From Escherichia phage vB_EcoA_4HA11, in the sequence record MN445184: a stretch of 64,000 bases of DNA. One strand, given 5' to 3'. The notes beneath the pieces were generated by a model. The model made no database searches. It was not told the DNA's origin and saw only the letters and a program-made list of their open reading frames with translations. This document shows positions 4,373 through 38,404 of the stretch, in pieces. Every line of letters begins with the position of its first letter. Positions within the stretch are counted from its first letter, which is position 1. The translations under genes and the position numbers were made by a program.

Positions 4373-4392
4373 GGAGGCTCCGGCCTCCTTTC
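4373..4392 (+). terminator. hairpin GGAGGCTCCGGCCTCC followed by TTTCAGTT; probable intrinsic terminator after rIIB-like gene
   Basis: perfect inverted repeat immediately 3' of stop at 4354. Confidence 0.55.
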
Positions 4393-5002: not shown

Positions 5003-5032
5003 GCCGATGTACAACAGCTGAACTTATTCAAT

Positions 5033-5425
5033 ATGCCTATCGTTGACGAAAGCAACTTTATGTATTATGCACTGAGGCATTATATTGTAGATTCTGTCTC
5101 GTGGGATGAACTGCTGGTAGACATTCAGCGGATTTCGCTAATTAATCAATCATTGAAGAGATTTGTCCCTGGTAAGAGTCCTCGGTTGATTCTCAATCAA
5201 TTGATTACTGTCTTCAATACGTTCGAAACAGAGGCCGCTTGCCGTATGCTCGTTTTGAAGGTGGATAAGCCCCAGTTGCCACGCCTCAAGGCTGCTTTGT
5301 TGACATTAGGCGTATGGCGCGATGATTTATGTTCCGGTTCATACGAACCAGATAATGAGCTGATGATGGCTCTGAACAACGATTTGGATGAGTGGAGGAA
5401 ACCATGCCAACGATCACTGTATTAG
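5033..5425 (+). CDS. hypothetical protein
   Basis: 130-aa ORF in same-strand gene train. Confidence 0.45.
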   Translation: MPIVDESNFMYYALRHYIVDSVSWDELLVDIQRISLINQSLKRFVPGKSPRLILNQLITVFNTFETEAACRMLVLKVDKPQLPRLKAALLTLGVWRDDLCSGSYEPDNELMMALNNDLDEWRKPCQRSLY

Positions 5426-6216
5426 TAGCACCGGAAGTTGTTCGCAACAAACCGGAAACTGAGCGTCTTCACACTGTAACAGGTACTGCTCGGGGTTGGG
5501 AAAAGACCAGTCTTAACCAAGACCCAGACGAGATCCTGACTGAGTGTAAAGGTCTGGATGCACTGCTGACCAAGAGCAATTTGCAGGCCGATGGCGTCAC
5601 CAAAGTGGATCCAACCAAGCCCGTTGGCTTCCAGCTGTCTTATGAAATCCACGACCCAAGCGCTGTGCTGACCACTGGCCTGACCATCACCCCTGAAACT
5701 GCTAATGGTGAAGTCGGTCAGGTTGTTGAACTGAAGGCGGTCGTCGCTCCGGAGAACGCGACCTACCAGGGTGTCAACTGGTACTCTGGCGATCTGACCA
5801 AAGCTGTGCACATCGGTGGTGGTAAATTCAAGCTGCTGGCGCCGGGTTCAGTGACTGTTTACGGTGTAACCATCGAAGGTGACCACACTGACTCTACCGT
5901 CATCACAGTGGCTGGCGCTCTGTCTCTGTCTACCGATCTGGCTGCTTCTCAGGATGTAACAACAGGTGAATCCGCAACCTTCACCATCGCTGCTACAGGC
6001 GGCACTACCCCATACAAACACACTTGGTACTTCTCTGATGTCCCTGGTGGTGAAGAAGGTGAGGTGATCGATGCTGGCACTAACCCCACTGCTGCAACTG
6101 CGAGCCTGGTTATCACTGCAGTTGCTGCCGAAAACGAGGGTGAGTACTGGTGTGTTGTTGAAGACGCTGACGGCCACTCTGTGACCTCTACTCGTTGCGA
6201 AATGGCTGCGGTCTAA
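5404..6216 (+). CDS. Ig-like domain protein (BIG2-like plus Ig-like repeat); possible Hoc-like capsid decoration or adhesin
   Basis: internal ATG at 5404 preceded by GGAGGA; translation shows bacterial Ig-like patterns (GEVGQVVELKAVVAPENATYQGVNWYSGD.., ..ENEGEYWCVVEDADG..). Confidence 0.5.
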   Translation: MPTITVLVAPEVVRNKPETERLHTVTGTARGWEKTSLNQDPDEILTECKGLDALLTKSNLQADGVTKVDPTKPVGFQLSYEIHDPSAVLTTGLTITPETANGEVGQVVELKAVVAPENATYQGVNWYSGDLTKAVHIGGGKFKLLAPGSVTVYGVTIEGDHTDSTVITVAGALSLSTDLAASQDVTTGESATFTIAATGGTTPYKHTWYFSDVPGGEEGEVIDAGTNPTAATASLVITAVAAENEGEYWCVVEDADGHSVTSTRCEMAAV

Positions 6217-6218
6217 TC

Positions 6219-6449
6219 ATGAAGGGCTTCCAGGACTTCCTTGAAGACTCGGCAGCCCCTGGAACCACGACCGCCGATGTGGGGAAACCCGAAGGCGGTA
6301 TGGTGAAAGAGCCTGTCAAGAAGCCCAAGGATCTTGAGGAAGAACAAGAGCAGACCTCCTTCCAAAAGATCTTTGGAAACATCTTCAAAGACCTCGACCT
6401 GAAGAATGCAAGAAAGTGGAACTTCAGGACAGGCAAATATGAAGACTAA
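6219..6449 (+). CDS. small protein with T4 internal-protein-like capsid-targeting N-terminus (MKGFQDFLE)
   Basis: ATG at 6219 in frame of ORF 6195..6449; N-terminus MKGFQDFLEDSA resembles T4 IP capsid-targeting sequence MKTYQEFIAE; lysine/acidic-rich body. Confidence 0.45.
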   Translation: MKGFQDFLEDSAAPGTTTADVGKPEGGMVKEPVKKPKDLEEEQEQTSFQKIFGNIFKDLDLKNARKWNFRTGKYED

Positions 6450-6450
6450 A

Positions 6451-6471
6451 AGAGGCTCCGGCCTCTTTTTC
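6451..6471 (+). terminator. intrinsic terminator (AGAGGCTCCGGCCTCT + TTTTTC)
   Basis: perfect hairpin followed by T-run; near-identical core to hairpin at 4373. Confidence 0.75.
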
Positions 6472-6494
6472 ATTTCCAGCATTTGGTGTATAAT
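6466..6494 (+). promoter_or_regulatory. candidate sigma70-type promoter (TTTTCA-N16-TATAAT)
   Basis: TATAAT at about 6489-6494 with weak -35; about 45 nt upstream of ATG 6538. Confidence 0.3.
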
Positions 6495-6537
6495 GGAACC
6501 GTTCCCCATGAGCGGAACCTAACTGAGGATACACCAA

Positions 6538-7038
6538 ATGAAATCCATGGTCAAACGTAAAGTCGAAATCTCCCTGACTGCCCATATTGAAATGGTCCAA
6601 CAACTTATCCTGGATGCGTATGAAATCCAGAAAGATCGCCAATCGAGGGGAGGTGTGACGGACCCCACCTGTCCTGGAAACATACTGTACTATCGCATGC
6701 TGCGCCAGACTGGGCACACCGCCGCGCTGAAGAAGATTCTGTCCTATGATTTCCAGACAGAGAACAACCTCAACATCATGGGTGTCTTCCATAGCGTTAG
6801 TGAACGCGATTCTTTCTTCCGCTCCCGAGCAGGCGCGGATGTATCATTGCCCGATGTAGACAAGAAACAGCACACGACAACCATCTCCCATTACATGGGC
6901 ACGGGCATCGATAAAGCAAATATCATCGTGTTCTCTGATACGTTGCATGACCCCAAGCGCCTTGCATCTGCGCATGAAATGCTGCGGGAAGGTCGCAGCG
7001 CCCTCACTAATTTGACTTTAGTAGTGTTTCTGGGCTAG
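6538..7038 (+). CDS. hypothetical protein
   Basis: 166-aa ORF. Confidence 0.5.
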   Translation: MKSMVKRKVEISLTAHIEMVQQLILDAYEIQKDRQSRGGVTDPTCPGNILYYRMLRQTGHTAALKKILSYDFQTENNLNIMGVFHSVSERDSFFRSRAGADVSLPDVDKKQHTTTISHYMGTGIDKANIIVFSDTLHDPKRLASAHEMLREGRSALTNLTLVVFLG

Positions 7039-7083
7039 ATAGTTACAGGGGAGGAAACTCCCCGCTTCAACCAGGAGGCGCAT

Positions 7084-7281
7084 ATGTTCAGGTTCAAGAT
7101 CTACAAAGAACGAAACTCGTTCAAATTCGGTGTCGTCGCTGGGGTGTGTTTCTTCCTGACGATCGAAAACGTGATCGGGCTGCTCACAATATCACAAATG
7201 CAGATAACCCGATTTGTCCTTGCTATCGTATTCGCCGCTATCGGCTTGGCCTGTAGTTATATGGGCTGCATGAAGAAGTAA
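7084..7281 (+). CDS. small membrane protein
   Basis: 65-aa ORF, two hydrophobic segments, AGGAGG RBS. Confidence 0.45.
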   Translation: MFRFKIYKERNSFKFGVVAGVCFFLTIENVIGLLTISQMQITRFVLAIVFAAIGLACSYMGCMKK

Positions 7282-7308
7282 TTTCACTACACACAGCAAT
7301 ACTTTGAT

Positions 7309-7812
7309 TTGAGAAACTACATCATGATGCTGTTAATGAACGTTCCACAGAACAAGATGACCCCTGCAACAGAGGGTAAGAATCACTTCAACATCTACAG
7401 CCGGAGCCAGACGGAACTCGGGCGCTTCCTCTCGCATTTTACCCATCATCCAATGACTACCCATGAACATGGTGTGTTTAACTCCATGGAGGGGTACTGG
7501 TATTGGCTGAAGTATAGGGATGACAACCTGCGCCTGCTCGACGGTTATGAGGCCAAGCAATATGGACAGAGGTTGGCGGCCACTCGCATCGCTGTCATTG
7601 ATCCATCATCCGAAGAATTCAAGCGCGATATCCTATTTGCAACTAGCATGAAACTCCAGACAATGCCTGAACGTCTGAAGATCAGATTGGCTTACAGTCG
7701 CCTACCCCTGATCCATGCATATGTTCAGAACGGGAAATACAGTTTTCAAAACTCTATGGACTATATCATTGCCCACATTAATCGTCTCCGCATACAAGGA
7801 ACTTTGAAATGA
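7309..7812 (+). CDS. hypothetical protein
   Basis: 167-aa ORF; start may be a few codons downstream. Confidence 0.45.
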   Translation: MRNYIMMLLMNVPQNKMTPATEGKNHFNIYSRSQTELGRFLSHFTHHPMTTHEHGVFNSMEGYWYWLKYRDDNLRLLDGYEAKQYGQRLAATRIAVIDPSSEEFKRDILFATSMKLQTMPERLKIRLAYSRLPLIHAYVQNGKYSFQNSMDYIIAHINRLRIQGTLK

Positions 7813-8390
7813 AATTTCTACATACTATCGTCGACACTTCTTATGACTGCACTGCTCATACCCCAGACCGTTCGCCTGTGTTTGTTCTGAACAAACTAGG
7901 TGAAGAGATCTGTGAACTGTCTGATGTGTTTCATGGTATAGTATCTTCCGAGCCGTTGAATGGCGAAGTTGCTGATGTCATTATCTCTGCTATTGACCTT
8001 CTGTACATTATGGATTTCAATGACCAGCAGCTGCATGGTTGCATGACCAAAGAAGAGTTGGCCGACTCAGTCCAGACATGTTTGGCATTGTGCAGCGATT
8101 GTTCTCCCGAATATCTTGAAGAAGATTGGTTCCGTCTGATCGATCGTGATCCCCAGAAGCACCTGAACCTCATCCATCATTATCACGGCCGGATTATCCG
8201 ATTGTGTAATCAGCCATATCGCAGCCAAGACGTCCTAGAGCGACTCGTTGCCAATTTGATCAAACATGTCGCACGGATGGCTTGCGGTGAAGGTGCCTTA
8301 CACAGCGTGAACATGTTGAGCACACGCATCAAAGTAGAGCACGCCATTGAACACAAAGTTGAAAAGTGGCGTACTAAATTTGGCTTATGA
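7809..8390 (+). CDS. hypothetical protein; weak resemblance to all-alpha (MazG-like) NTP pyrophosphatase
   Basis: 193-aa ORF; LNKLGEEICELSDV..EVADVIISAIDLLY pattern; low-confidence family guess. Confidence 0.4.
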   Translation: MKFLHTIVDTSYDCTAHTPDRSPVFVLNKLGEEICELSDVFHGIVSSEPLNGEVADVIISAIDLLYIMDFNDQQLHGCMTKEELADSVQTCLALCSDCSPEYLEEDWFRLIDRDPQKHLNLIHHYHGRIIRLCNQPYRSQDVLERLVANLIKHVARMACGEGALHSVNMLSTRIKVEHAIEHKVEKWRTKFGL

Positions 8391-8565
8391 AATACGAAAT
8401 CATCTTAGACGCTCTCTGTATGAGAGCAATATTGTTTAATGTTGAAAGAAACCGGGTTAAGCTCTGTGTGTTCTAAGGCCACAGCTCAAACTTGTATATC
8501 TAAATTTCAGGAATGTTGGATACCAAAAGAAGATCCCGCCTGGTTGAAATTTTACGGAGATAATA

Positions 8566-10467
8566 ATGGTTGATGTAAACAGAAAATACAAAAAGCTCTC
8601 ACACATCGAGCATATACTCCTTCGCCCAGAGCGCCATCTGGGGAGTATCCGTTCTTCTGTCGGCATGGCTTGGGTATATGATCCCAGCAAAGACAAAGTT
8701 GTGTTTAAAGACAATTTTGAATATAACCCCGCCCTTATCAAACAGTTTGATGAAATCATCACCAACTGTGTTGACCACAGCAAGACCCCTGAGGGAAAAT
8801 CCCTGACGGAAATCACCATTACCATCTGCCCTATGAACGGACAGATCATCGTGGCGGATAACGGGGGTATTCCTGTGGTAAAACATGAATCTGGTATGTG
8901 GTTGCCAGAAATGTTATTTTCAGAATTGTTTGCGGGATCAAACTTCAACGACGATGACGAAGAATACAACAACCAGAAGTCCGGCGGCCAGAACGGTGAA
9001 GGGGCGTCCCTCGTCAACGTGTTCTCAAAATGGTTCCGCGTCGCGACCAGTGATGGCAAGAAGTCTTATGCTCAGCTGTTTGAAGACAACATGAGCAAGA
9101 AGTCCAATCCGGTCATCAGCAATACGCCGAAAGAGTTCGGCACCACGATTGCCTGGATCCCTGATTATGCTCGTCTGGGTGTCAAGGGGCTTGACCAGAA
9201 CAACCTGCTGATGATCTATCGCCGCGCGTTTGAAGTGGCTGCGTGTAATCCGCGCCTGAAGATTGTTCTCAACGGGAAGCAAATCCGGATTGACCGCTTT
9301 GGTCACTTCGTTGATTACTTCCATGCTGGCTCGGCTGTTGACGAAACCGGGGATTGGTCTGTTGCTGTAGCCCCTTCATCCGGTACGTTCATGCACGCAT
9401 CATACGTGAACTCTATTGCCACCCACATCGGTGGTCCTCACGTTGATTATGTTGCCGACCAGATCGTGGCAGCGATTCGTCCTCAGCTGGTGAAGAAGTT
9501 CAAGACCGAACTGAAGCCAGCAATGATCAAGAACCACATGTCCTTGTTCATCGCCGCCGACATCAACAACCCGCGCTTTGACAGCCAGACCAAGGAGCGC
9601 ATGACCACTCCTGTCAGCCAGTTCGGTACGTCGTACAAGCCCAGCGATAAACTGATCCGCAAGGCGCTTGAGTTCGTTACGGCTGGTCTGAGCAAAGAAC
9701 TGGCTTCCCTGCGCAATGAGCAGGATGGTGCTGAGTTTGAAAAGGCCAAGAAGGACATCAGCAAGCGGGATTATCGTGAGATTGAGAAGTATTACCCGGC
9801 GACCGCCCGTGGTGACCGCAGCGGATGCTCCCTGCTACTGACAGAGGGTGATAGTGCCTCCAATCCTATCCTGAACGCCCGCGACACCAAGAAGATCGGG
9901 TTGTTCCCGCTTCGTGGTAAGTTCATCAACTGCCTGAACGCCCCGCGCTCAAAGGTGATGAACAATGAAGAGTTCAAGAACCTGTGTACGATCCACGGCG
10001 GCGCAGTGCCAGGCCAGCCCCTTGATATCACCCGTTACCCACAGACTGTTGTGGCTACCGATGCGGACGATGACGGCATCCACATCCGTGGGTTGTTGAT
10101 CACCCTGTATTGCACCTACTGGCCGGAGTACGTCCGTCAGGGCAGGCTGAAGCTCCTGCGCACCCCTTACATGCGTGTGTGGTGTGGTAAGGTGATGCAT
10201 GAGTTCATGAACAACGCAGAGTATGAGGAGTTCCTGAAGACGCCTGATGCCAAGAAGATCACGAAGAAGAAATATCTGAAAGGTCTGGGTGGTAACAGCA
10301 CTGAAGACTTCAAGCGTATTCTAAACAACCTAGATGCGTATACTACGACGGTCACGCTGGACGATGGCTATCAACAGTCACTGAAGAATGGCTTCGGTGA
10401 TGAGGCCGCCGATTACCGCAAAACCTGGTTTAGCGATGTTTGTCTATTTGAAACCGAGGATGAATGA
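8566..10467 (+). CDS. DNA topoisomerase II large (ATPase, GyrB-like) subunit, gp39/gp60-like
   Basis: 633-aa ORF; N-terminus LSHIEHILLRPERHLGS, GHKL motif ADNGGIPV, TOPRIM-like EGDSA. Confidence 0.85.
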   Translation: MVDVNRKYKKLSHIEHILLRPERHLGSIRSSVGMAWVYDPSKDKVVFKDNFEYNPALIKQFDEIITNCVDHSKTPEGKSLTEITITICPMNGQIIVADNGGIPVVKHESGMWLPEMLFSELFAGSNFNDDDEEYNNQKSGGQNGEGASLVNVFSKWFRVATSDGKKSYAQLFEDNMSKKSNPVISNTPKEFGTTIAWIPDYARLGVKGLDQNNLLMIYRRAFEVAACNPRLKIVLNGKQIRIDRFGHFVDYFHAGSAVDETGDWSVAVAPSSGTFMHASYVNSIATHIGGPHVDYVADQIVAAIRPQLVKKFKTELKPAMIKNHMSLFIAADINNPRFDSQTKERMTTPVSQFGTSYKPSDKLIRKALEFVTAGLSKELASLRNEQDGAEFEKAKKDISKRDYREIEKYYPATARGDRSGCSLLLTEGDSASNPILNARDTKKIGLFPLRGKFINCLNAPRSKVMNNEEFKNLCTIHGGAVPGQPLDITRYPQTVVATDADDDGIHIRGLLITLYCTYWPEYVRQGRLKLLRTPYMRVWCGKVMHEFMNNAEYEEFLKTPDAKKITKKKYLKGLGGNSTEDFKRILNNLDAYTTTVTLDDGYQQSLKNGFGDEAADYRKTWFSDVCLFETEDE

Positions 10468-10910
10468 TGGAATATCCACTAACTCATCAGATGCAGCCAA
10501 CAAAAGACACGTGTATGTCAACGTGCCTGGCGATGTTACTTGAGCGTCCGGTCGCCGAGGTTGCTGAAATATGGCATGAAAGTTTCGCGAATTGGGAAAC
10601 CACGATTGGTGACGTTCTTTGTATGGAAGGGGTTCCGTTCTTGCAAGGGAAAGGGGTCAACCAAACTTCCACCATCTATCATGATTATGTTTATCTGCTT
10701 TGCGTGCCAAGTCCAGCAACGCCAGGATTATTGCACCAGATCATCTTAGACACTCGTCATGAAAAACTTGTTGTGTACGACCCACTGAAGGGTACTGGCA
10801 AAAGATATTACACCCTGGATGAAGACAAATCTCCTCTGGCGGTAAAACTTGAAACTTGGATTGTGGACTACATTGTCGATCCATATGAAGTGGGAGGTTA
10901 TCGTGGGTAA
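10464..10910 (+). CDS. papain-like (peptidase C39-like) cysteine peptidase domain protein
   Basis: 148-aa ORF overlapping both topo genes by 4 nt and 1 nt; HQMQPTKDTCMSTCLAMLL (Gln..Cys) and HQIILDTRHEKLVVYDP (His..Asp) resemble C39 catalytic motifs. Confidence 0.4.
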   Translation: MMEYPLTHQMQPTKDTCMSTCLAMLLERPVAEVAEIWHESFANWETTIGDVLCMEGVPFLQGKGVNQTSTIYHDYVYLLCVPSPATPGLLHQIILDTRHEKLVVYDPLKGTGKRYYTLDEDKSPLAVKLETWIVDYIVDPYEVGGYRG

Positions 10911-10911
10911 G

Positions 10912-12243
10912 ATGGTTGCCAAGAGCATTACTGTAACGGACTTTGTCAACACTGACCATAAGCAGTTTTCTGTGGTCAACAGCATCCGTCAAATCCCTCA
11001 GCTGATTGACAGCCTGAAGCCAAGCCAGCGCAAGATACTCTTCGCTGCTCTTGAATACAACAAGGAGGAGATTGTTGACCGCCTTGGCATGTTCGCCGCC
11101 GCTCGCACCAACTACAAGTCTGGTGGTGAGAACATGAGCGGCACTATCGTGAACATGGCTCAGGGGTTCCCAGGAACGAACAACATCCCGTACTTTGACC
11201 GCGATGGCCAGTTTGGTTCTATCATGGGGCGTGATGCTTCATCTGCCCGATACATATCCGTCGCTGTATCTGACGTTATCCGCAAGATCTTCCGCAAGGA
11301 GGATGAGGGTATCTTGGAATACAACTACCTTGGTGAAGAAAGGCTGGAGCCGAAGTTCTTTCTGCCCATCCTGCCCATGTTCCTGGTGAATGGGATCAAT
11401 GGTATCGGCACCGGATATTCCACCGACACCCCGTGTCATTGCGTTAAGTCCGTGCTCAGTGCCCTGAGAGCGCTTCTCCGTGGCGAAGATCCGAAAGACT
11501 TAAAACCGTACTGGAACGGCTTCAAAGGAGAGACAGGCTATACTGAGGAAGGAAGAGCATACAGTCGCGGCATCTTCCGTCGCGTCAATGCCACCACCCT
11601 GCATATCACCGAAGTCCCAGTGGGTTGGTTCGCCAAAACCTATGAGACCAAGGTGTTGCTACCTCTGTATAAGGCAGGTATCCTGACCGAGTACGCCAAC
11701 GACACGACGGAAGATGGCTGGGATATCACGGTTGTGTTTAAGCGCGGCGAACTCTCTAAGCTGAGTGACGAGCAGGTTGAGCAGATGTTCAAGCTGTATT
11801 CAGCCACCAAGCCTGTGTGGACAGCATGGGATGAAGACGGTGTTATTCATCGTTATTCTGGTTGGCGGGATATGTTGCTGCCGTTCTTCAATTATCGCCT
11901 GTCACGGTACGAAGACCGTCGCCAGTATCTGTTGAAGGACATGGCAGACAGAATTCGTAAGCTGAACAATCGTGCCCTGTTTATTGCATGGGCTGTGGTG
12001 ACTGACCTACGACGCAGTCTTGATGAGCTGAAGGCATTGTTCCAAACAGACTACCCAGACTTTGATGGTGACCTTGACGAGTTGTTCAAGATGCCTCTGT
12101 CGTCTATTACTCTGGACGCCCGTGAGCGCCTACTGAAGCAGATTGAGAACCTTGAAGCACAGCACAAGGAATTAAGTAAGAAAGAGGACATCGATCTTTA
12201 CACTGAAGACCTTGATGACCTTGAAAAGGCTCTTGGCCTATAA
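10912..12243 (+). CDS. DNA topoisomerase II medium (GyrA-like) subunit, gp52-like
   Basis: SLKPSQRKILFAAL and FDRDGQFGSIMGRDASSARYI resemble gp52/GyrA motifs; start ATG 10912 (or GTG 10903). Confidence 0.8.
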   Translation: MVAKSITVTDFVNTDHKQFSVVNSIRQIPQLIDSLKPSQRKILFAALEYNKEEIVDRLGMFAAARTNYKSGGENMSGTIVNMAQGFPGTNNIPYFDRDGQFGSIMGRDASSARYISVAVSDVIRKIFRKEDEGILEYNYLGEERLEPKFFLPILPMFLVNGINGIGTGYSTDTPCHCVKSVLSALRALLRGEDPKDLKPYWNGFKGETGYTEEGRAYSRGIFRRVNATTLHITEVPVGWFAKTYETKVLLPLYKAGILTEYANDTTEDGWDITVVFKRGELSKLSDEQVEQMFKLYSATKPVWTAWDEDGVIHRYSGWRDMLLPFFNYRLSRYEDRRQYLLKDMADRIRKLNNRALFIAWAVVTDLRRSLDELKALFQTDYPDFDGDLDELFKMPLSSITLDARERLLKQIENLEAQHKELSKKEDIDLYTEDLDDLEKALGL

Positions 12244-12247
12244 CATC

Positions 12248-12265
12248 GGAGGGGTTCGCCCCTCC
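12248..12265 (+). terminator. stable stem-loop GGAGGGG-UUCG-CCCCTCC after topoisomerase gene (terminator or RNA-stability element; no U-tract)
   Basis: perfect 7-bp stem with UUCG tetraloop 4 nt after stop. Confidence 0.35.
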
Positions 12266-12567
12266 TCACCTGGAGGGTTGTGCTATGTTCTATCTCCGTT
12301 CTGAAGCACCTATGGTATTCATCATTTCCTATTTGATTTCCTGGTTCCTCGCTTTATCAAAGAAGAGGTAGCGTTTGGTCTCTATGGTGAGACGGAAGAC
12401 CCAGAGGTCGATGAGTATTACCCAATGTGCGCCCTGAAAGATATCGAGGAAGGGGAAGATGTTGCAATGGTCGGCACCATGCGTTCTTTCAATCTGTTTG
12501 GGCTTGCACTCTTTCCGAAACTGGTTGGTGAACTGCGCCCCTACAATCCTGAAGCCGCTGTAGAGGG

Positions 12568-12885
12568 TTGATCATGCCACAGCTTCTGAGTCCTAAACTT
12601 CTGTCTATGGGTGATTCCCTGTATTTTCACTGCCCTGGATGTGATATACTTCACCCATATCGCATTAAGGGCGAAGTCCAAGGTCCGGCGTGGTCGTGGA
12701 ACAACAATGTCGTTGCTCCTACGTTCACGCCGAGCCTGCTGGTGAATGCATCTGATCTAGCATCACGTTGCCATCTGTTCCTGACCGACGGCAAAATACA
12801 ATTCCTCGGCGACTGTTTCCATGATCTGAAGAACCAGACAGTGGATATGGTCGACATCTCTGAACCTGAAATTTGGATTGAATAG
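12568..12885 (+). CDS. small Cys/His-containing protein (zinc-binding?)
   Basis: 105-aa ORF with HCPGC and CH/H pairs. Confidence 0.45.
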   Translation: MIMPQLLSPKLLSMGDSLYFHCPGCDILHPYRIKGEVQGPAWSWNNNVVAPTFTPSLLVNASDLASRCHLFLTDGKIQFLGDCFHDLKNQTVDMVDISEPEIWIE

Positions 12886-12888
12886 ATT

Positions 12889-13299
12889 ATGAAATTACTT
12901 GGATATTTTCGTGAACTCCCAACGGGAACTGAAGGCAAGTTGTTCTCACAGGTGAAGGGGGATGACATCGGTGATACGATGATTCCCCTGTACACTCGTG
13001 AACTTCCTGCCGAAGGTGCCTGGGAGCGCCGTGTGGTCGCTGCCGCCAACAAATATGGTGACGTGATCGTCGTTGCCGACCGCCACCATAGCAAATTCAT
13101 GAACAGCCAGCTCAAGATCCTGAAAGAAGCAGGCGTCATTAAATCCACCCATACCCGCGAACAGGGTTTCATCGACAACCAGGGCAACTTCCTCACTCGT
13201 GAAGAGGCATGCATCGTAGCCCGTGAAGCTGGACAGATCAATCAGGTGCGCCTGAAGACAACCCCTTTCCGCGAACTCTTTTCCGAAGACCTCTATTGA
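12889..13299 (+). CDS. hypothetical protein
   Basis: 136-aa ORF, 4 nt after previous stop. Confidence 0.5.
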   Translation: MKLLGYFRELPTGTEGKLFSQVKGDDIGDTMIPLYTRELPAEGAWERRVVAAANKYGDVIVVADRHHSKFMNSQLKILKEAGVIKSTHTREQGFIDNQGNFLTREEACIVAREAGQINQVRLKTTPFRELFSEDLY

Positions 13300-13349
13300 A
13301 GAAAAAGGCGGTATTATTACCGCCTCGACCTCTTGTTTGGTAACATCGA

Positions 13350-13592
13350 ATGAGCCCAGAATTTGAAAACCTGTTCGAGCGATGCTTCGAACCAGGTTCT
13401 GTGTCCGGTTACATGGACCGCCTTTGCACTGCCATTGTAATACGCCTTGCTGCCAAGGGTATCGTTGTCAACACCATTATCCGCAATGGGAACAACTTTA
13501 TCATGCAGATGACTGATTATCACCGCCGCACAGGCATCATCCAGGTGTCATGTGTTGACAACAGCATTATTGAATGGAGACAGTACGCATGA
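13350..13592 (+). CDS. hypothetical protein
   Basis: 80-aa ORF. Confidence 0.4.
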   Translation: MSPEFENLFERCFEPGSVSGYMDRLCTAIVIRLAAKGIVVNTIIRNGNNFIMQMTDYHRRTGIIQVSCVDNSIIEWRQYA

Positions 13593-14188
13593 CAACCTAT
13601 GTAATCAATGGCGGCGATTTACTGAAAGCCGCCTGTAGTTTCAATCTGATCGACATCTTTGCCCACGGTGCCAACTGTTGGTCTACCATGGGCGCGGGTA
13701 TTGCCCTGCACATCGGCAACAACTTCCCAGCGCTGCGCGAAGTCGATGCGAACGACCCTCGTGGTCCAGAGCAACGCCTGGGTGGCATGTCCTATGCATT
13801 TGACCACAGCACTGGTGTCTGGGGTGCGAACCTCTACACTCAGTTTTATCCAGGTCCGAACGCTCGCATGCCGTCTGTCATCAGTTCTGTTCAGATGTTG
13901 TTTGAGCAGGTTCACGAAATTGTGGAAGCAACTAAAGACGAAACTGTCTATGTCGGACTGCCTGCTATCGGCTGTGGTATTGGTGGTCTGAACCTCTACA
14001 GTGTAGTGCGCCATATCAATCGAATCTCTGAAAGCGTGTATGAAGAGACCCGCCGTCGTGTCGTCCCAGTCTTCTATATCAGGGAAGGAGACGGATTCGA
14101 TGATGATCTGATGGAACTTTCCCATCTGGACACAGAAGGTATCATGATTGTCGAAGATGAGCAAGAAATCATCGACGAGGAGGGGTGA
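13589..14188 (+). CDS. macro domain protein (ADP-ribose binding/hydrolase fold)
   Basis: ATG 13589 with GGAGA RBS; motifs AHGANCWSTMGAGIALHI and GLPAIGCGIGGL match macro-domain glycine-rich loops; acidic C-tail. Confidence 0.55.
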   Translation: MTTYVINGGDLLKAACSFNLIDIFAHGANCWSTMGAGIALHIGNNFPALREVDANDPRGPEQRLGGMSYAFDHSTGVWGANLYTQFYPGPNARMPSVISSVQMLFEQVHEIVEATKDETVYVGLPAIGCGIGGLNLYSVVRHINRISESVYEETRRRVVPVFYIREGDGFDDDLMELSHLDTEGIMIVEDEQEIIDEEG

Positions 14189-14191
14189 ATA

Positions 14192-14443
14192 ATGATGTGT
14201 GCGTTTGATCAAGAATTTTATAAAAAGGTCAATATTCTAAAACTTGTCATGTCTGGATCTAGTTCGAAAGAAGTATCAGAAATTTATTGTATTTCACAGG
14301 CCAGGGTGAGCCAGATTTTGAGGGAAACTATAGGGTTACTTTGCCCAGAGATAGAAATTAAGCGCGTCAACAAAAAGTTCATTGATGAAAATTATTATAC
14401 AGTAAAAGCCAAAATAAAGTGTTGGGAGAATAAACATGTATAA
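14192..14443 (+). CDS. small HTH DNA-binding protein
   Basis: 83-aa ORF; SSKEVSEIYCISQARVSQILRE helix-turn-helix. Confidence 0.5.
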   Translation: MMCAFDQEFYKKVNILKLVMSGSSSKEVSEIYCISQARVSQILRETIGLLCPEIEIKRVNKKFIDENYYTVKAKIKCWENKHV

Positions 14444-15068
14444 ATCAAATTTTTTGGCTGTGGCCGACAGTGAAACCTTGGGGCGCTGGGATGATGCAGT
14501 CATGCTGTCTTGGGCACACACCATCGCTGACCTGACCAAGCGTTATACTCTTCAGCAGCTGGTTGAGGAGCGCACGACGTTCATTAAGCTGAATGTCAAA
14601 GAGCAGCTCGAACTTGGTCGCGTGAAGGACGCTGGGACGGTAGAATGGTGGTTGGGGGCGGGCAAGCGCAACCCGTGTGATGCGGCTCGCGCCGTCAGTC
14701 TGTACCCGACTGAGCAGGACATCTCTATCTTCCAGCTGGCCGATGAAATCCGCAAGGGTTGTCATCGTCTTGGGGTAGACCCGCGCTCGGTTGACTGGTG
14801 TGATCGCAACCTGTTTGATCTGCGCAAGGCTCAGCACATCATTGAGGTGACGTGTAAGCAGGACTCCAACGAGCCTTGGGATTACCACCACACCTTCGAC
14901 ATCGTGAGCTGGCTGAAGGGTGTTGGGCAACAGGATCGCTACGCTGGTATCAAGGCGTGGGAACTGGAAGGTATGGTCTATCACGACCCTCGTTATGACG
15001 CTGCGCTTGACTGGCTGCGTATTCAGAAGACCATGGAAGATCTGATGGGGCTGGAGGTTGTGGGGTGA
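14436..15068 (+). CDS. DEDD-family 3'-5' exonuclease (DexA-like)
   Basis: FLAVADSETLG (Exo I D-x-E) and C-terminal YHDPRYD motif. Confidence 0.5.
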   Translation: MYKSNFLAVADSETLGRWDDAVMLSWAHTIADLTKRYTLQQLVEERTTFIKLNVKEQLELGRVKDAGTVEWWLGAGKRNPCDAARAVSLYPTEQDISIFQLADEIRKGCHRLGVDPRSVDWCDRNLFDLRKAQHIIEVTCKQDSNEPWDYHHTFDIVSWLKGVGQQDRYAGIKAWELEGMVYHDPRYDAALDWLRIQKTMEDLMGLEVVG

Positions 15069-15367
15069 TTGTATTCACTGTCATCGGTGTGATCGTAACA
15101 GCTGGGGTATTCACAGCCATATTGGGCTACCTGTACTTCATGTTCCTTCATCCGTTATTTCAGGCGTTCAGTCTCACGAATTGGTACTTGGCCTGCCTAA
15201 AGGCCGACGGCGGCGTGAACATGGCCTCTCTTCCTTACTGGCGGCTGGTGGCGCATTACTACTCGGTCGGTGGCTGGCCTGGGGAAAGGACATGGAACTC
15301 TATCGGTGAGTGGTATGGAATAGGTCGATGGCGTATATTCCCTGATGAAGACGATCAAGCCCCGTGA
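15065..15367 (+). CDS. membrane protein
   Basis: 100-aa ORF with N-terminal transmembrane helices. Confidence 0.45.
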   Translation: MIVFTVIGVIVTAGVFTAILGYLYFMFLHPLFQAFSLTNWYLACLKADGGVNMASLPYWRLVAHYYSVGGWPGERTWNSIGEWYGIGRWRIFPDEDDQAP

Positions 15368-15378
15368 GGGCTTTTCTA
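15357..15378 (+). terminator. hairpin AAGCCCCGTGAGGGCTT + TTTC overlapping stop
   Basis: inverted repeat followed by T-run. Confidence 0.5.
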
Positions 15379-15430
15379 TATCCGGGATAGAGTATCATTG
15401 GTTCACCAACGAATCCTCGGGAGAGGCGAT

Positions 15431-15772
15431 ATGAAACGTTCAGTTGTTGTAAATGACATCACGAGATTGATAAACCTTGTCAAAGATGTGTTTCCACAAC
15501 AGGTGGATGTCGAGTATGTTGGGAAGAACGGAAAGTGTTATCAGGTTGCTCTGTTGTTGAAGCACGTGTACCCCCAAGCAGAGATCCATTACAGTCAGAT
15601 TGAAGGCCATGTGTATACTCTGATTGATGGGAATTATTACGACATCGACGGCATCCACTTCAGTGTCCCACCAGACACGTGTTTGCTCGAACATAATAGA
15701 GGCCACAAACCCCATCGCTGGCATAAAGGGTTTGTGAACGTACCGATTTTAGAATGGCTGAGGAAACCATAA
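15431..15772 (+). CDS. hypothetical protein
   Basis: internal ATG 15431 after GGGAGAGG RBS. Confidence 0.45.
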
Positions 15773-16332
15773 TGGCCGGAATTGTAAAGTACCTGGGTGA
15801 CACCCACCTCGGACACAAGAAGATCTTCAAGCCCCGTGGGTTCGACACACAGGAAGCCCACGACGCTGCGGTCATCGACAGTATCTTTCAGGGGCTGAAG
15901 TCTCGAGACGTCCTTGAACTGGCTGGGGACATCTGCTTCATCGGGGCTGAGGGGTTCATTCGCCTGATGCGGGAGGGTGCCAAGCGAAACATTGATGAGT
16001 TTAAGCGACGCCCCGTTCCCGATGACTGGCGTCCGAACTTTATCATCAAGGTGGCACAAGGCAACCATGACAGCTTTAAGATGTTGTTGTCTCTGTATCT
16101 GGACGGCTGGATTAGCTCCTTCGGCGCTATGTATGAACGTGACACGCCTGTTGGCCGTGTGTTGACAACACATGTTCCTTATCAATTAGACCGTTGGGCG
16201 TATAATATCCATGGTCATCTTCACGAAAATATTCGCGAAGAGCGCGAATACCTGAACTGCAGTTGGGAACAATTCAAGCGTCCTGTAACCCTGGCTGAGT
16301 TATTATACACAAATTTAGGAATTGTGTTATGA
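15772..16332 (+). CDS. calcineurin-like metallophosphoesterase
   Basis: GDTHLG, GNHD and HGHLH motifs; ATG 15772 after GAGGAA. Confidence 0.6.
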
Positions 16333-32587: not shown

Positions 32588-32917
32588 CTACCCCACCAAA
32601 ATTTTGTTGTAATCCTGAGCATTTTGCTGTATCAGATCAACTAAGATATCCCCAGACACCACAGTGAACAAGTCATTTTCTTTCAAATTAACAAATAACA
32701 AACGCCATGGTTTCTTCAATATATCTGTTGTAAAGGATAACCGAGGCTCTCCATTATCTAAATGGACACCCACTTTCCCTATACGAAATTGAACACCGCG
32801 GAACTTGCCTTCCGTTATTTCGATAATAGCTAACTGATCAGAACCAGGGTCGATGATTTTGTAATTAACGGGGGAGTCTCCTCCCCCTGCAATATTACTC
32901 GGTTGTTTTGATGACAT
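32588..32917 (-). CDS. hypothetical protein (occupies the gene-40 position between gp41 and uvsX)
   Basis: 109-aa ORF; assignment by position only. Confidence 0.35.
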   Translation of the reverse strand: MSSKQPSNIAGGGDSPVNYKIIDPGSDQLAIIEITEGKFRGVQFRIGKVGVHLDNGEPRLSFTTDILKKPWRLLFVNLKENDLFTVVSGDILVDLIQQNAQDYNKILVG

Positions 32918-33980
32918 TATCGAGGCGCTCCAGCATATCTGCAGGCATAACCGAACTCTGAGAGATACCGAACATGTTGTTCACATCGTCAACAAAGTCT
33001 GGGTTTTCCAGCAACGGATACCAGAAGTCATCCCCCAGCTCTGCCTTACGATATTTCTTTTCTTTTTCTGGATCAAACCCGCCTTTGGCAGTACGTTGAT
33101 ACCAAGAACCACTCACCAAATCCACATACCCCAGCATGCGCGCAATTTCTAACATACCGGACCAACGGTCAATACCGCCTTCATACAACACAGTGACAGG
33201 GAACTTGGCTTTTTCACGGACAAAGCGGCCTTTCATAATGTTGACTGTAAACTGCCATCCCAAAAGGTCTTTGTCTTCTTTTACTTGAGAACGCGTGATG
33301 AACCACAATTGGTTAGAAGACAGGAACCCCTGTTTACCGCCTTTGATGTTCGGCTCGGCGTATTGGTTCCCGATTTCATCATAGTACGAGTTGATCCATA
33401 CCAAAACGAATTTCTTTTCAGTGACCAACGGGGTGATAACACGCCAAAAACTATTGAGAGCGCGAGCGCGGGTCATATCTTGTGTGTCTTTGCCCGCGAT
33501 GGCATCATCAACTTCTTTGGTAGACGGCAACTGGCTGATTGAGTCAATGAATACGATGATCTTGTCACCTTTCTGAGCATCATTCAGAAGCTGTGTCAGT
33601 TTGATCTTCGTCTTTTCAACGTTTTCAATCGGCAGATACAAGACACGGTCCATGTCAATACCCATAGATGTCCAGTAGTTTTCATTCGCACCGCCTTCTG
33701 AATCCGCGAAGATACAAATTGCATCAGGAAACTTATCCATGTAAGCCTTAACATCCACCAGCCCAAACATGGTTTTGAATGTACGAGAATCCCCCACCAA
33801 CTGTTTGATGCCTGATATCAGACCACCATCAATACGACCGGACCAGGCCAAATTCAGAATAGGAATACCCGTACTGCAAATAATGTCAGGCTTCAGCGCA
33901 TCGGTCTTTGACAGCACTTCGGCATTCGGGTCCAGTTTCTTTGCTGTCTTGAGCATGCGAGCCATCAATGAATCGGCCAT
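32895..33980 (-). CDS. uvsX: UvsX RecA-like recombinase
   Basis: 361 aa; RecA-fold pattern; adjacent to gp41 as in T4. Confidence 0.8.
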   Translation of the reverse strand: MADSLMARMLKTAKKLDPNAEVLSKTDALKPDIICSTGIPILNLAWSGRIDGGLISGIKQLVGDSRTFKTMFGLVDVKAYMDKFPDAICIFADSEGGANENYWTSMGIDMDRVLYLPIENVEKTKIKLTQLLNDAQKGDKIIVFIDSISQLPSTKEVDDAIAGKDTQDMTRARALNSFWRVITPLVTEKKFVLVWINSYYDEIGNQYAEPNIKGGKQGFLSSNQLWFITRSQVKEDKDLLGWQFTVNIMKGRFVREKAKFPVTVLYEGGIDRWSGMLEIARMLGYVDLVSGSWYQRTAKGGFDPEKEKKYRKAELGDDFWYPLLENPDFVDDVNNMFGISQSSVMPADMLERLDNVIKTTE

Positions 33981-34495
33981 TTCGTTTCCTCTTGCTTGTT
34001 GATCGTAATTAATAAATCGGTGCCCAAGACTTTCTTGGACAATATATTGATTGCTTCGTGAATCGCCATTATTGACGGGAGTTTTTCATCGTTAATTTCG
34101 GAACCCCCGCGTTCTGTTAAATACATATTACGCAGACGATTGTGCTGTGCCCTGTTGACACAAGAAACATTCAATGCGATATTCAGGATATACATCATTT
34201 GTTCAGTTGTAACATCCTTTGGAATAGCATGAACATAATATATCGCATCTTCAAAATAGATATGCTGCAATGACTCTGGAATTTCTTCCCCGCCAAAAGC
34301 AAAATCTTCAATGCGTTTAAAAAGTGTTTCCGGCTCTGGTGTTGTAATATGTTGTGTTACAGTAGCCGCACCATTTGGCCCTTTCTTGAAATTGGTCGCA
34401 ATAACGACATGACCGCCTGGTTTAATAAACTCAGCGAAGTTCTCTGCCATGTACGGGGCATGTTCCGCATAATATGATACGACGACTGTAAACAT
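33965..34495 (-). CDS. hypothetical protein (occupies position of T4 beta-glucosyltransferase; no glycosyltransferase motif seen)
   Basis: 176-aa ORF; FIKPGGHVVIA motif of unclear significance. Confidence 0.4.
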   Translation of the reverse strand: MFTVVVSYYAEHAPYMAENFAEFIKPGGHVVIATNFKKGPNGAATVTQHITTPEPETLFKRIEDFAFGGEEIPESLQHIYFEDAIYYVHAIPKDVTTEQMMYILNIALNVSCVNRAQHNRLRNMYLTERGGSEINDEKLPSIMAIHEAINILSKKVLGTDLLITINKQEETKWPIH

Positions 34496-35040
34496 TAGAA
34501 CTCCAGAGTCAGAGGGGTTTCGGCAGACTTGTCATAGTTCGCACCGCCAGCAGCACGTAGACGATTGCGATCGTTCTTGCGCTTGTGCGCCAGCATGTAG
34601 GTTTCGGCATCCAGTCCCAAATAACCACAAGCATACGCAAGGAAAGCAGCCAGCACATTGCGCTCTGGATGAGACATAAAATGCGTAAACAGATTTGTCA
34701 CATGGAGGAAATCTGGCTTTCTCTGAATAGGTTGGTCAGACACATAACCCGTCATGTCGTACATATCATGCGGCTCTGCTTCTTTTTGTATAACGGCACA
34801 CAGCATGAAGTGGACAACATCGACCAATTCATAGACTGCATTAACTTGGTGCCATTGCTGATCATTTCCATAGATCTTCCAACTGGTCGAAACTTCATCA
34901 AGAAATTCCGCCCACTCGCGGTAGATGGAATTCGCCACCGCTACATCGGTCCAATACTTCTTCCACTCTTCCCCAAAATAGGCCACGTTGGTGGCCTTTT
35001 GAAGTTCGAGCAGATTTTTGATATGCTCTGCTGTGATCAT
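34495..35040 (-). CDS. all-alpha (MazG-like) dNTP pyrophosphatase, gp56 dCTPase/dUTPase-like
   Basis: 181 aa; helical, acidic metal-binding-like segments and C-terminal KRKNDRNRLR pattern similar to recalled T4 gp56. Confidence 0.45.
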   Translation of the reverse strand: MITAEHIKNLLELQKATNVAYFGEEWKKYWTDVAVANSIYREWAEFLDEVSTSWKIYGNDQQWHQVNAVYELVDVVHFMLCAVIQKEAEPHDMYDMTGYVSDQPIQRKPDFLHVTNLFTHFMSHPERNVLAAFLAYACGYLGLDAETYMLAHKRKNDRNRLRAAGGANYDKSAETPLTLEF

Positions 35041-35621
35041 TTCCGATCCCTATAAAATTTGACGAATGGTTGCCAACCTTCAAATGGGTTAACAAATTCA
35101 TAATCAACTTCCATCTTATCAATGAAAGCCTCAATGTCATCCTCTATGATACCACCGCGATCCGCCTTTGAAATGCGGGTGATGGGACATTTAGTGCTCA
35201 GCGCCCATTCATATTCCTGAGGGGTGCGCAAATCACTCACGATATAATGAACGTGTGGGTTCTGCTCCACCAAAGGAAGTTGATATCGTTTAAAGAATGA
35301 CAGGAACAGGTCTGGTTGTACATAACGCAAGCCCGTATCGCTGCCCAGATGAAGCCAGATCTGCCGTGGGGTTAAGCCCTTGGGGTTATCAGGGTGTACG
35401 AATGGAACGTCCTTCACAGCATCCTCCACCTCCGCTGGTAGCCATGGGTAGATGAAATTGGCGACACGTCGCAGTTCATCTGAGAAAGACAGACGACGAA
35501 TATCCTTATCACCCTGAATATGATGAAAACTGATCAGGGACTCCAAACAGAAGTCCTTGCCGGAGCGCTTGCGCCCCGTGAAGAATTCAAGGTTCTGGTA
35601 CATCATTCGCCATACCCCCAC
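35037..35621 (-). CDS. deoxynucleoside monophosphate kinase (gp1-like)
   Basis: N-terminal GRKRSGKD matches T4 gp1 GVKRSGKD P-loop. Confidence 0.6.
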   Translation of the reverse strand: MGVWRMMYQNLEFFTGRKRSGKDFCLESLISFHHIQGDKDIRRLSFSDELRRVANFIYPWLPAEVEDAVKDVPFVHPDNPKGLTPRQIWLHLGSDTGLRYVQPDLFLSFFKRYQLPLVEQNPHVHYIVSDLRTPQEYEWALSTKCPITRISKADRGGIIEDDIEAFIDKMEVDYEFVNPFEGWQPFVKFYRDRK

Positions 35622-36646
35622 ATAAATTTCTGATCAACAGGGGAATGCAGTAATGCAGTACGAAGACCGTCATCAGCGATACGGCGTTTGTCAATTTTGG
35701 TATCATTGAGGCGACACCACAGGCAATATGACATATCCATCATCAATCCCGTGTCTGCTTGATATCCTTTCAGATGTTCTCTGATTTTACCAAAATCACT
35801 GCCGATGTCACAGTGATGTAACACGCCGAGGAATAGATTACAAATATCTTTTTGCGACTTCACTTTTTCTGAAGAGAATTCCAGCAAAGAATTGTACATC
35901 CCAGAAGAAGTTTTGGTCTTCTTAGTGATACCCCCGAGTTGTTTCCGACTAACTTCATTGTTGTAATAATGAAGATTGTTAGAAAACAGTTTGTAATACC
36001 CAACTTCGACATTCAGCACTTTCGCCAGAACTTCTTGCAGGATAGAGAATTCAATGAAATTGATTGAACTCATGCCCCACAAGACATCTTGGCTGCGGTT
36101 AATGACAGTGATATTCAATCGCCCTTCTGTTATACTGAACAATAGAGCAAGATTACAGATCATGTCCTTGGTCTTGGCTTCTCCAGTTTCACTATGGGCG
36201 GCCAAACCTTCATCTGAGTCCAGCGCCGGATCATAGATGGTGAGATACGCCTGACGGGTGTTGGGATTATTACGCAGACGGCTGATGACACTATCCAACT
36301 GGCCATTATTGTACAGACGTGGGCCATACGCGCCTCGCCAGGTTACACCGTCATCAGAGAAGTTGGCGGCGCGGGGTAAGACTTTCGAAAGGAAACGGAT
36401 ATCATTACGTCCGGACAACACCCAGAATGTCTCACCGATGGCAGCAATTGCCGACGAGTTGCGGCCTTCAACGGAAAGCCAACGGTCACGTGGATCTGAT
36501 ACTGTAATTGTTACACCATCAATGAAACGAGTGCCGTCAGTGTTAATCTCTGCGTTGCCAGGATCTGACTCAATGCCGTGTTCACGGATGGCCAACACAG
36601 CCTTCTTCAGCATATCATTATTGTTTAAAGCAAAAATTTCCATCAA
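35603..36646 (-). CDS. thymidylate synthase-fold deoxypyrimidylate hydroxymethylase (gp42-like, unusually long)
   Basis: 347 aa; NRSQDVLWGMSSINFIEF matches TS-family block QRSxDxxLGxPFNIASY; candidate catalytic Cys in DMICNLA; no LPPCH motif; YLTIYDP resembles gp42 IMIYTRP. Confidence 0.6.
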   Translation of the reverse strand: MMEIFALNNNDMLKKAVLAIREHGIESDPGNAEINTDGTRFIDGVTITVSDPRDRWLSVEGRNSSAIAAIGETFWVLSGRNDIRFLSKVLPRAANFSDDGVTWRGAYGPRLYNNGQLDSVISRLRNNPNTRQAYLTIYDPALDSDEGLAAHSETGEAKTKDMICNLALLFSITEGRLNITVINRSQDVLWGMSSINFIEFSILQEVLAKVLNVEVGYYKLFSNNLHYYNNEVSRKQLGGITKKTKTSSGMYNSLLEFSSEKVKSQKDICNLFLGVLHHCDIGSDFGKIREHLKGYQADTGLMMDMSYCLWCRLNDTKIDKRRIADDGLRTALLHSPVDQKFMWGYGE

Positions 36647-37317
36647 TCAATACTCCCAAAATCACGATTGAGAAACGCAAAAACAGCCTGCTCTATAGTC
36701 AGGCCATTGGACTTCATCATACCTGCGGGAACGGTAGGGAACAAGCCTTTATGCCGTTGGCGGTGGTCATGAACTCTCTCCCACTTTTCGACAACCAGGC
36801 TTTCATTGAAGTCTGCGCCGCCGTTGCGTGATTTCACACGGGAAACACAGGTTTCAAGCGGGGTGTCCATGAAGAGCACGACTAATTCGCGCGGTGGGCG
36901 CGTCAGGCGGGGAATCCATGAGCTGAGCAAAGTTGAAGGGATGATTCCTTCAAACAACACGTCATATTTCAGATATTCCGGCTGATCAGCAATGGACAAG
37001 GCGAACAACATCTGCTCGGTATCTTTCAGGGAATCAACACCTTTAGACTTAGACTTGTCATATTTACCAATACAGATAATGTTATAGGAAGGGCAAACTG
37101 TGAGCATGATCTTGCCATTGTAGGTCACGACATACGCCTGAGGATCATTCTCCGCCAGATAGGAAGGGACAGTGGACTTGCCGCTACCGTTGGAGCCTTT
37201 AACGTAATACAACTCTCCTCGTGCCGGATATTCCCCTTCGACAGCAGGTGGTTTTACAAATAGATGTACGGGGCGCTTCAACAACCCTTTGAGCGAATAC
37301 GACATGGTGTGCTCCAA
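36643..37317 (-). CDS. P-loop kinase (candidate 5-hydroxymethyl-pyrimidine DNA kinase or extra nucleotide kinase)
   Basis: 224 aa; Walker A GSNGSGKST; translationally coupled to hydroxymethylase gene. Confidence 0.55.
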   Translation of the reverse strand: MEHTMSYSLKGLLKRPVHLFVKPPAVEGEYPARGELYYVKGSNGSGKSTVPSYLAENDPQAYVVTYNGKIMLTVCPSYNIICIGKYDKSKSKGVDSLKDTEQMLFALSIADQPEYLKYDVLFEGIIPSTLLSSWIPRLTRPPRELVVLFMDTPLETCVSRVKSRNGGADFNESLVVEKWERVHDHRQRHKGLFPTVPAGMMKSNGLTIEQAVFAFLNRDFGSID

Positions 37318-37377
37318 TAAACAAAAGGAGCTGCTATTATAGCAGCCCCTTCATCTATTGAATGCTTCTGAATTAAA

Positions 37378-38337
37378 TTACGCAGCAGCTTTCGCTTCGG
37401 CCAACGCCTGTGGCAACCATTCATTGATTGCTTTCACCAGAGATTCGGCATCAGTTTCTTTGATTTTCTGGCGTTTGGTGAATGATTTACCATTCACATA
37501 CAGACTGAACCCCCAGCCGCCGGAAACGATCGGCGCCAGATCAACATAAGTATTGGTGCGGGCGTGTGGATTGGCTTCATCTGCCAGTTCGGTAACAGGG
37601 AACTGGAACCAGCGCATATCCGGATTCACATAGCTCAAATAAACCCCAGGCACAACCCCCGATTCAACCGCAGCCAGGATAGGACCATAATTGGATGCGC
37701 GAGCCGCTTCAACCATTTCTTCACGCTTGTTATGACGACGCTTGCGTTCTTCGGTAGAAGATGCAGGGCGCATTTCAGAAGATTTCTTGGCCAGAACCGC
37801 CTTCGCGTTCGCTAAAGCCTGATCATCCTTCGGATTTTCAACGTCGGCGATTGCTTCAGCAACGGTTGTGCCCAGCATACGACGGCGAACTTCTTCAGCA
37901 CGGGCTTGCGCTTCTTCGTCAAGAACTTCTTCGCCTTCAACTACCAGGGAAATGGAACCGTCTTTGTTGACTTCAAGAGAACCGTCTTCGACGGTCTGGG
38001 AATTTTGATCACCGACAGGTTGCCCAACCGTTTCTTCGGCGTCAATCACCGGATTTGATTCACCGTCGCCCTGTTTAACCCCCGCATCTTCGGTCGGTTT
38101 AACTTTTTCGGCTTCAGCGCGGTCAAGAGCTTCGAGAGTCTCTTCTTTCTCTTCCTGGCTCAGACCTTCAATGAGTTCAAAGCCGTTGGCTGACTGGAGG
38201 ACGCCTTCCATCATACGGCGTAACGTGACGTTGCCGATGATAAGGTCTGCACCTTTGATTTCTGCTTGAAGATCAGCAGCGGTTTTACCATCAATTTCAA
38301 ATTTCAGGCCGGACTCGATATGAAGAATATAGGACAT
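37378..38337 (-). CDS. acidic hypothetical protein
   Basis: 319 aa with long Glu/Asp-rich low-complexity region. Confidence 0.5.
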   Translation of the reverse strand: MSYILHIESGLKFEIDGKTAADLQAEIKGADLIIGNVTLRRMMEGVLQSANGFELIEGLSQEEKEETLEALDRAEAEKVKPTEDAGVKQGDGESNPVIDAEETVGQPVGDQNSQTVEDGSLEVNKDGSISLVVEGEEVLDEEAQARAEEVRRRMLGTTVAEAIADVENPKDDQALANAKAVLAKKSSEMRPASSTEERKRRHNKREEMVEAARASNYGPILAAVESGVVPGVYLSYVNPDMRWFQFPVTELADEANPHARTNTYVDLAPIVSGGWGFSLYVNGKSFTKRQKIKETDAESLVKAINEWLPQALAEAKAAA

Positions 38338-38404
38338 AATAAAAACCCTTTTGTGTAGTAACCTTCTTTGGCAGTCTAATGTTCAACTGTGCGTCTGGAA
38401 CATT

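Follow-up and report, generated by a model that had tools for sequence, protein, structure and literature searches.

Known 5-hmdU DNA kinases

Kinases that act on a base within DNA are an unusual enzyme class; the prediction of such an activity reportedly dates from 2013, and its demonstration from 2018-2021. The hypermodified nucleoside 5-(2-aminoethoxy)methyl-dU (5-NeOmdU) shields phage DNA from many restriction endonucleases. It is the native modification of phage ViI, and combined lysates containing the ViI proteins gp67, gp160, gp226, gp243 and gp247 converted 5-hydroxymethyl-2'-deoxyuridine (5-hmdU) DNA into 5-NeOmdU (Lee et al., PNAS 2018, PMC5889632). Gp67 (YP_004327432) is entered as 5-hmdU DNA kinase in Table 1 of Lee et al. 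(NAR 2021, PMC8989533). Like the purified reference enzyme gp54 of Pseudomonas phage M6 (YP_001294562), it converted the 5-hmdU of SP8 phage DNA in vitro into the 418 u product 5-PmdUMP. With M6 gp54, ADP was the sole other major product, and the 32P of gamma-labelled ATP was transferred to the DNA. The 5-hmdU receives one phosphate only, which in the gp67 reaction likewise comes from ATP (PMC8989533). ViI encodes a second such enzyme, gp243 (YP_004327565, 5-hmdU DNA kinase 2), whose in vitro activity is the same as that of gp67. Of the remaining ViI proteins, gp247 is the serine:DNA transferase that converts 5-phosphomethyl-dU (5-PmdU) to O-serinyl-T, and gp226 is the PLP-dependent decarboxylase yielding 5-NeOmdU (PMC8989533). 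5-HMUDK, the DNA kinase for 5-hmdU, was noted to co-associate with dUMP hydroxymethyltransferase (PMC5889632, Fig. 2 legend). The same pathway scheme was kept, for a further modification, in a paper of 2026 (PMC13458397).

Identification of the kinase gene

The window, i.e. the whole stretch of 64,000 nucleotides that was analysed, carries on its minus strand an ORF at 36643..37317, which encodes 224 amino acids if begun at TTG. The first-pass annotation had assigned to this ORF the Walker A motif GSNGSGKST and had proposed a DNA-level 5-hydroxymethylpyrimidine kinase. Direct reading of the window DNA confirmed the ORF and the P-loop, which is encoded at 37171..37197 (minus strand; residues 41-49 of the 224-residue ORF).

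The proposed function was supported by two results. The protein matched the Pfam family PF18748 (HMUDK_HMUD1, '5-hmdU DNA kinase') with 387.1 bits (E=1.7e-116, gathering cut-off 27), and the match was end to end, protein residues 18-213 covering profile positions 1-196 of 196. It was also identical in 219 of 220 positions to Vi01_061c (orf00067, YP_004327432.1), that is, to the characterized ViI gp67, which belongs to the same Pfam family and has the same length when counted from ATG. The sole substitution concerns residue 182 of the 220-residue form, where ViI gp67 has S and the window protein R. The gene is thus identified, with a probability of roughly 95%, as encoding an HMUD1-type 5-hmdU DNA kinase (in the sense of Iyer/Aravind and Lee et al.), the orthologue of ViI gp67 in a Kuttervirus, and its substrate is predicted from the sequence match to be 5-hmdU specifically. 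None of the results spoke against this identification. The protein is 100% identical in four deposited phages (Mutine, Mooltan, vB_SentM_sal1 and FSL SP-029). It is an enzyme already described and biochemically characterized, present unchanged in deposited genomes, and not a new candidate.

Window positions 35000-38400 share 99.3% DNA identity with Salmonella phage Mutine and 98.2% with Vi01, both of which belong to the genus Kuttervirus of the Ackermannviridae. The window is Kuttervirus (ViI-like Ackermannviridae) DNA. It represents an isolate different from Vi01: the kinase locus is closest to that of Mutine, and in its initial 22 kb the window has only about 90% identity to any deposited phage.

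Conserved residues of the kinase family were read from an alignment (A1) of six sequences, in which the identities to the window protein were about 56-57% for Erwinia phage Bue1, about 41-43% for Vibrio phage K471, 31% for Bacillus phage YungSlug, 27% for Bordetella phage FP1 and about 27-31% for M6 gp54. The Walker A core N-G-x-G-K-x-T did not vary across the aligned family (N39, G40, G42, K43, T45; 220-residue numbering). Further invariant columns were G80, Y82, G89, D91, G120, E151, R156, R160, N161 and K174. The segment R-V-K-S-R-N containing R156, R160 and N161, encoded at 36823..36840 (minus strand), is a putative kinase lid. Position 182, the only one to differ from ViI gp67, is not an invariant column, and four of the six sequences have R or K there. 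M6 gp54, the purified reference enzyme, retains the Walker A core, G80/Y82, G89/D91, E151 and R156/R160/N161 and acts on 5-hmdU DNA to give 5-PmdU; it differs from the window kinase in being without the N-terminal extension of about 30 residues. The genetic setting differs as well: in M6 the gene is closely grouped with those of its transferase, PLP and radical-SAM partners, and the end product is 5-NedU.

A search of the PDB with the single kinase sequence gave nothing below E=0.06, and a search with the A1 profile found no close solved structure in the PDB copy searched. The best profile match was to the lid region of gluconate kinase (GntK, PDB 1knq; full-sequence E=3e-5), likewise a P-loop kinase, over A1-profile positions 121-180, and it is the R156/R160/N161 segment that aligns there; the others were ABC ATPases matching in the P-loop only. 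GntK is a small-molecule kinase. The likeness extends over no more than some 60 residues and the P-loop and gives no evidence for a shared substrate. The scan of the kinase against NCBIfam found no family at E<=0.01. An AlphaFold2 model made from the single sequence (mean pLDDT 35, pTM 0.30) was unusable.

Translation start and transcription signals

The length of 224 amino acids given in the first-pass annotation is probably too great. A GGAG sequence at 37315-37312 is overlapped by the TTG at 37317 and stands 6 nt upstream of the ATG at 37305, for which it is the likely Shine-Dalgarno sequence. The Vi01 homologue is annotated from the equivalent ATG as a protein of 220 amino acids. From the placement of GGAG and the Vi01 annotation, the true coding sequence is therefore most likely 36643..37305 (minus strand; 220 codons plus stop), and the in-frame extension up to the TTG, 37306..37317 on the same strand, with GGAG inside it, is probably untranslated.

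At its 3' end the kinase gene reads ...GAT TGA TG G, where the stop codon TGA occupies positions 36645-36643. The 4-nt overlap with the hydroxymethylase gene that had been reported earlier holds if the TTG at 36646 is the start of the latter; with the ATG at 36643, the start in the Vi01 annotation, the overlap shrinks to 1 nt (TGATG). With either start codon the two genes are joined stop to start.

A terminator-like hairpin was found by sequence scan at 37324..37352 (minus strand), consisting of a 13-pair stem followed by the T-run TTTTGTTT. It separates the kinase start from the stop codon at 37378, with which the upstream gene ends. A scan for sigma-70-type promoters yielded no candidate from this upstream hairpin to the kinase start; across the scanned region there were 12 candidates, as compared with 6.7 +/- 2.5 in shuffled sequences, and 0 of them at the kinase start. 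No tRNA was found in a scan of the whole window. A terminator feature is listed somewhere under the match to window positions 35000-38400 in the Mutine record.

Gene neighbourhood

The kinase gene is the first in a chain of six overlapping genes, all on the minus strand, in the order kinase, hydroxymethylase, dNMP kinase, NTP pyrophosphohydrolase, ACT-like protein and UvsX. The second gene (35603..36643; as a 347-aa ORF from TTG, 35603..36646) encodes a dUMP hydroxymethyltransferase of the thymidylate synthase superfamily (PF00303, 54 bits; phrog_3676, E=5e-183). Its product is 100% identical to Vi01 'thyA' and scored far under the NCBIfam ThyA equivalog cut-offs (53 vs 327 bits), in keeping with a divergent enzyme within the superfamily. 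It overlaps by 4 nt the gene of a gp1-like dNMP kinase (35037..35606, also given to 35621), identified by phrog_139 (E=3.3e-48) and by the dnk annotation of Vi01; the separate dNMP kinase noted at first pass is thus present. After a further 4-nt overlap follows a dUTPase_2/MazG-type NTP pyrophosphohydrolase (34495..35040; PF08761, E=4e-11; phrog_173, E=2e-40). A gene for a phage ACT-like domain protein (33965..34495; PF24021, E=3.6e-86), overlapping by 1 nt, is the last small gene before uvsX (32895..33980), which ends the chain.

The stop/start overlaps suggest that the six genes may be translationally coupled. The neighbours of the gp67 gene in Vi01 are the same as those in the window: the thyA-like hydroxymethylase, dnk, the dUTPase_2-type NTP pyrophosphohydrolase, the ACT-like protein and uvsX. 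The order kinase, hydroxymethylase, (dNMP kinase), NTP pyrophosphohydrolase is common to Bue1, in which the kinase still adjoins the hydroxymethylase, and K471, where it runs on through (ACT-like) and UvsX at a kinase identity of about 41-43%.

Alternative functions

A P-loop kinase within a nucleotide-metabolism operon could be a second free-nucleotide kinase of the dTMP/dNMP type, acting on the 5-hmdUMP of the pool or on other dNMPs and not on DNA. The name 'thymidylate kinase' given to the homologue in some GenBank records and a weak match to the thymidylate kinase family phrog_761 (E=3e-4), which contained no qualifying stretch, point in this direction. The near-identical ViI gp67, however, acts on the base in DNA (PMC8989533), and a dedicated dNMP kinase is already encoded two genes off. 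Clear homology to dTMP or dNMP kinases, named in the first-pass annotation as the finding that would speak against a DNA-level enzyme, was looked for in three ways and did not appear: the Pfam families Thymidylate_kin and dNK were not matched, the 60 top PDB profile matches contained no thymidylate kinase, deoxycytidine kinase reaching only E of about 0.04 and matching in the lid region alone, and hhalign of the A1 profile against the gp1-like dNMP kinase of the window gave a probability of 0.3%. A free-nucleotide kinase is therefore very unlikely.

Still less credit can be given to a polynucleotide 5'-kinase resembling the kinase domain of T4 Pnk and acting on the ends of DNA or RNA. The Pfam matches other than PF18748 were both below threshold and restricted to the P-loop; they were ABC_tran (18.4 bits) and AAA_33, whose 19.7 bits (cut-off 27) over residues 38-64 are what favours an end-directed kinase, but PF18748 scored about 370 bits more, over the full length. 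The 60 top PDB profile matches contained no Pnk. Moreover, 5-hmdU DNA phosphorylated by M6 gp54 resists NcoI, a protection that supports internal over terminal phosphorylation (PMC8989533).

That the protein is a small terminase subunit, as stated by the RefSeq name of the Vi01 homologue, by the label of phrog_800 (E=1.5e-68, positions 2-220 of a 511-position profile) and under the match in other phages, can practically be dismissed, since no Pfam terminase domain was found and a P-loop kinase family was matched over its full length, since Vi01 has its own small subunit, Vi01_162c, adjoining the large terminase Vi01_161c on its upstream side and about 73 kb off, and since the kinase activity has been published (PMC8989533). 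The label looks like a propagated mis-annotation. Besides 'terminase small subunit' (RefSeq, PHROGs), public records call the kinase 'baseplate hub', 'thymidylate kinase' or 'hypothetical protein'. With the public names so often wrong, the practical value of the assignment as a 5-hmdU DNA kinase lies in the correction of the annotation.

Proposed pathway

A pathway can be drawn up by combining the annotation of the window with the published scheme. The hydroxymethylase would convert dUMP to 5-hmdUMP, which the gp1-like dNMP kinase would phosphorylate on the way to 5-hmdUTP, and the MazG/dUTPase_2-type enzyme probably clears the competing dUTP and dTTP. The phage polymerase would then insert 5-hmdU in the places of T. 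After replication, the P-loop kinase is expected to phosphorylate each 5-hmdU of polymeric DNA once, with ATP as donor and on the oxygen of the 5-hydroxymethyl group, giving 5-PmdU and ADP; for the window protein this step is inferred from its 99.5% identity to ViI gp67. In ViI, the phosphate of 5-PmdU serves as leaving group and is replaced by the side-chain oxygen of serine through the gp247-type transferase, and the O-serinyl-T so formed is decarboxylated by the gp226-type PLP enzyme to 5-(2-aminoethoxy)methyl-dU.

The second ViI kinase, gp243, differs from the window kinase in family (PF18747, HMUD2) and length (304 amino acids), with about 20% identity across the aligned part. Hhalign showed a distant relation to the family of the window kinase in the 75 N-terminal residues, a part that contains the P-loop (probability 84%, E=7e-6). 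Its gene is absent from the window and has as neighbours the genes for DNA polymerase and serine:DNA transferase, not the hydroxymethylase. Since the gp67-type gene is joined to the hydroxymethylase, as part of the presumed expression unit of the pre-replicative nucleotide genes, and the gp243-type gene accompanies those of polymerase and serine transferase, the two kinases are possibly not redundant. A division of labour by infection time or sequence context, setting which 5-hmdU residues become hypermodified, or an additional role of the gp67-type enzyme at the nucleotide level or in a complex with the hydroxymethylase, could be imagined, although we regard such specialization as doubtful.

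Partner genes

The window had been described as containing no recognizable transferase. This was correct: a tblastn search of the 64 kb with ViI gp160, gp226, gp243 and gp247 gave nothing better than E=0.36. In Pfam, gp160 corresponds to PF18723, gp243, as mentioned above, to HMUD2, and gp247 to PF18724 (amino acid:DNA transferase); gp226 is a PLP enzyme. In Vi01 the four proteins are encoded at 87-89 kb and 140-152 kb. Mutine has homologues of gp247 (7.7-8.9 kb), gp243 and gp226, which together fall at 7.7-19.6 kb, just beyond rIIA. Position 1 of the window is the ATG of a 918-aa ORF that aligns with rIIA of related phages. With rIIA at the window start and the gene layout of Mutine, the partner genes are therefore expected just beyond position 1, outside the window.

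By analogy with these relatives, we infer that the isolate carries the partner transferase and decarboxylase and makes 5-NeOmdU. The kinase gene would thus mark the genome as one that swaps part of its thymine for 5-(2-aminoethoxy)methyluracil, a modification that matters when Kuttervirus phages are sequenced, cloned or used in therapy. Among enterobacterial phage records, the gp247 family and the kinase were almost equally frequent, with 164 vs 161 in Salmonella, 45 vs 45 in Klebsiella, 28 vs 28 in Escherichia and 19 vs 19 in Dickeya phages.

Database names of the two 5-hmdU DNA kinases

The public names of the characterized HMUD1-type 5-hmdU DNA kinase (window 36643-37305, minus strand) and its homologues are inconsistent and often wrong. 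RefSeq calls the homologue in the Salmonella phage ViI (Vi01) 'terminase small subunit', and its entries for Mutine, ECML-4, S118, Maynard and other phages have the same name under the match. The PHROGs family matched by the kinase, phrog_800, is also labelled 'terminase small subunit'. In other records the homologues appear as 'baseplate hub', 'thymidylate kinase', 'putative kinase', 'P-loop nucleotide kinase 1' or 'hypothetical protein'. Vi01 and Mutine also encode a 5-hmdU DNA kinase of the HMUD2 type (PF18747). This second kinase was located in Vi01 (gp243, positions 42520-43434 of L003, the stretch of the Vi01 record) and in Mutine (positions 9462-10355 of L010, the stretch of the Mutine record). 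In both phages its RefSeq name is 'guanylate kinase', which is likely a further mis-annotation.

Transcription and neighbours of the kinase gene

A strong terminator-like hairpin, consisting of a 13-pair stem and a T-run (37324-37352, minus strand), lies immediately 5' of the kinase gene and carries the hexamer TATAAT within its loop/stem. Since no sigma-70-type promoter was found between this hairpin and the kinase start, transcription of the kinase operon may depend on read-through or on a phage-specific promoter.

Directly upstream of the kinase gene is the gene of an acidic, low-complexity-rich protein of 319 amino acids (37378-38337, minus strand), which belongs to phrog_3905, a family of unknown function, and has no match in Pfam. 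Its counterpart is retained in Vi01 as Vi01_062c. Within the overlapping nucleotide-metabolism chain headed by the kinase, a gene for a phage ACT-like domain protein (33965-34495, minus strand; PF24021, E=3.6e-86) sits between the NTP pyrophosphohydrolase and UvsX genes. ACT domains usually bind small ligands, e.g. amino acids. The equivalent position in Vibrio phage K471 also holds a gene.

Apparent mosaic structure and base composition

The vB_EcoA_4HA11 genome looks mosaic when window 1-22561 is compared with 35000-64000. The first ~22.5 kb, encoding rIIA, rIIB, a topoisomerase and baseplate genes, shows at best ~90% identity to any deposited phage, with a coverage of 82-85%, and its top matches are E. 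coli Kuttervirus-like phages, e.g. AV101. In contrast, the 35-64 kb segment is 98-99% identical to Salmonella Kutterviruses. The G+C content is 48-51% in positions 1-16000 and 42-47% over most of the length of 16001-64000, the change at ~16 kb being a sharp step. A single block with G+C up to 49% is located at 36-38 kb.
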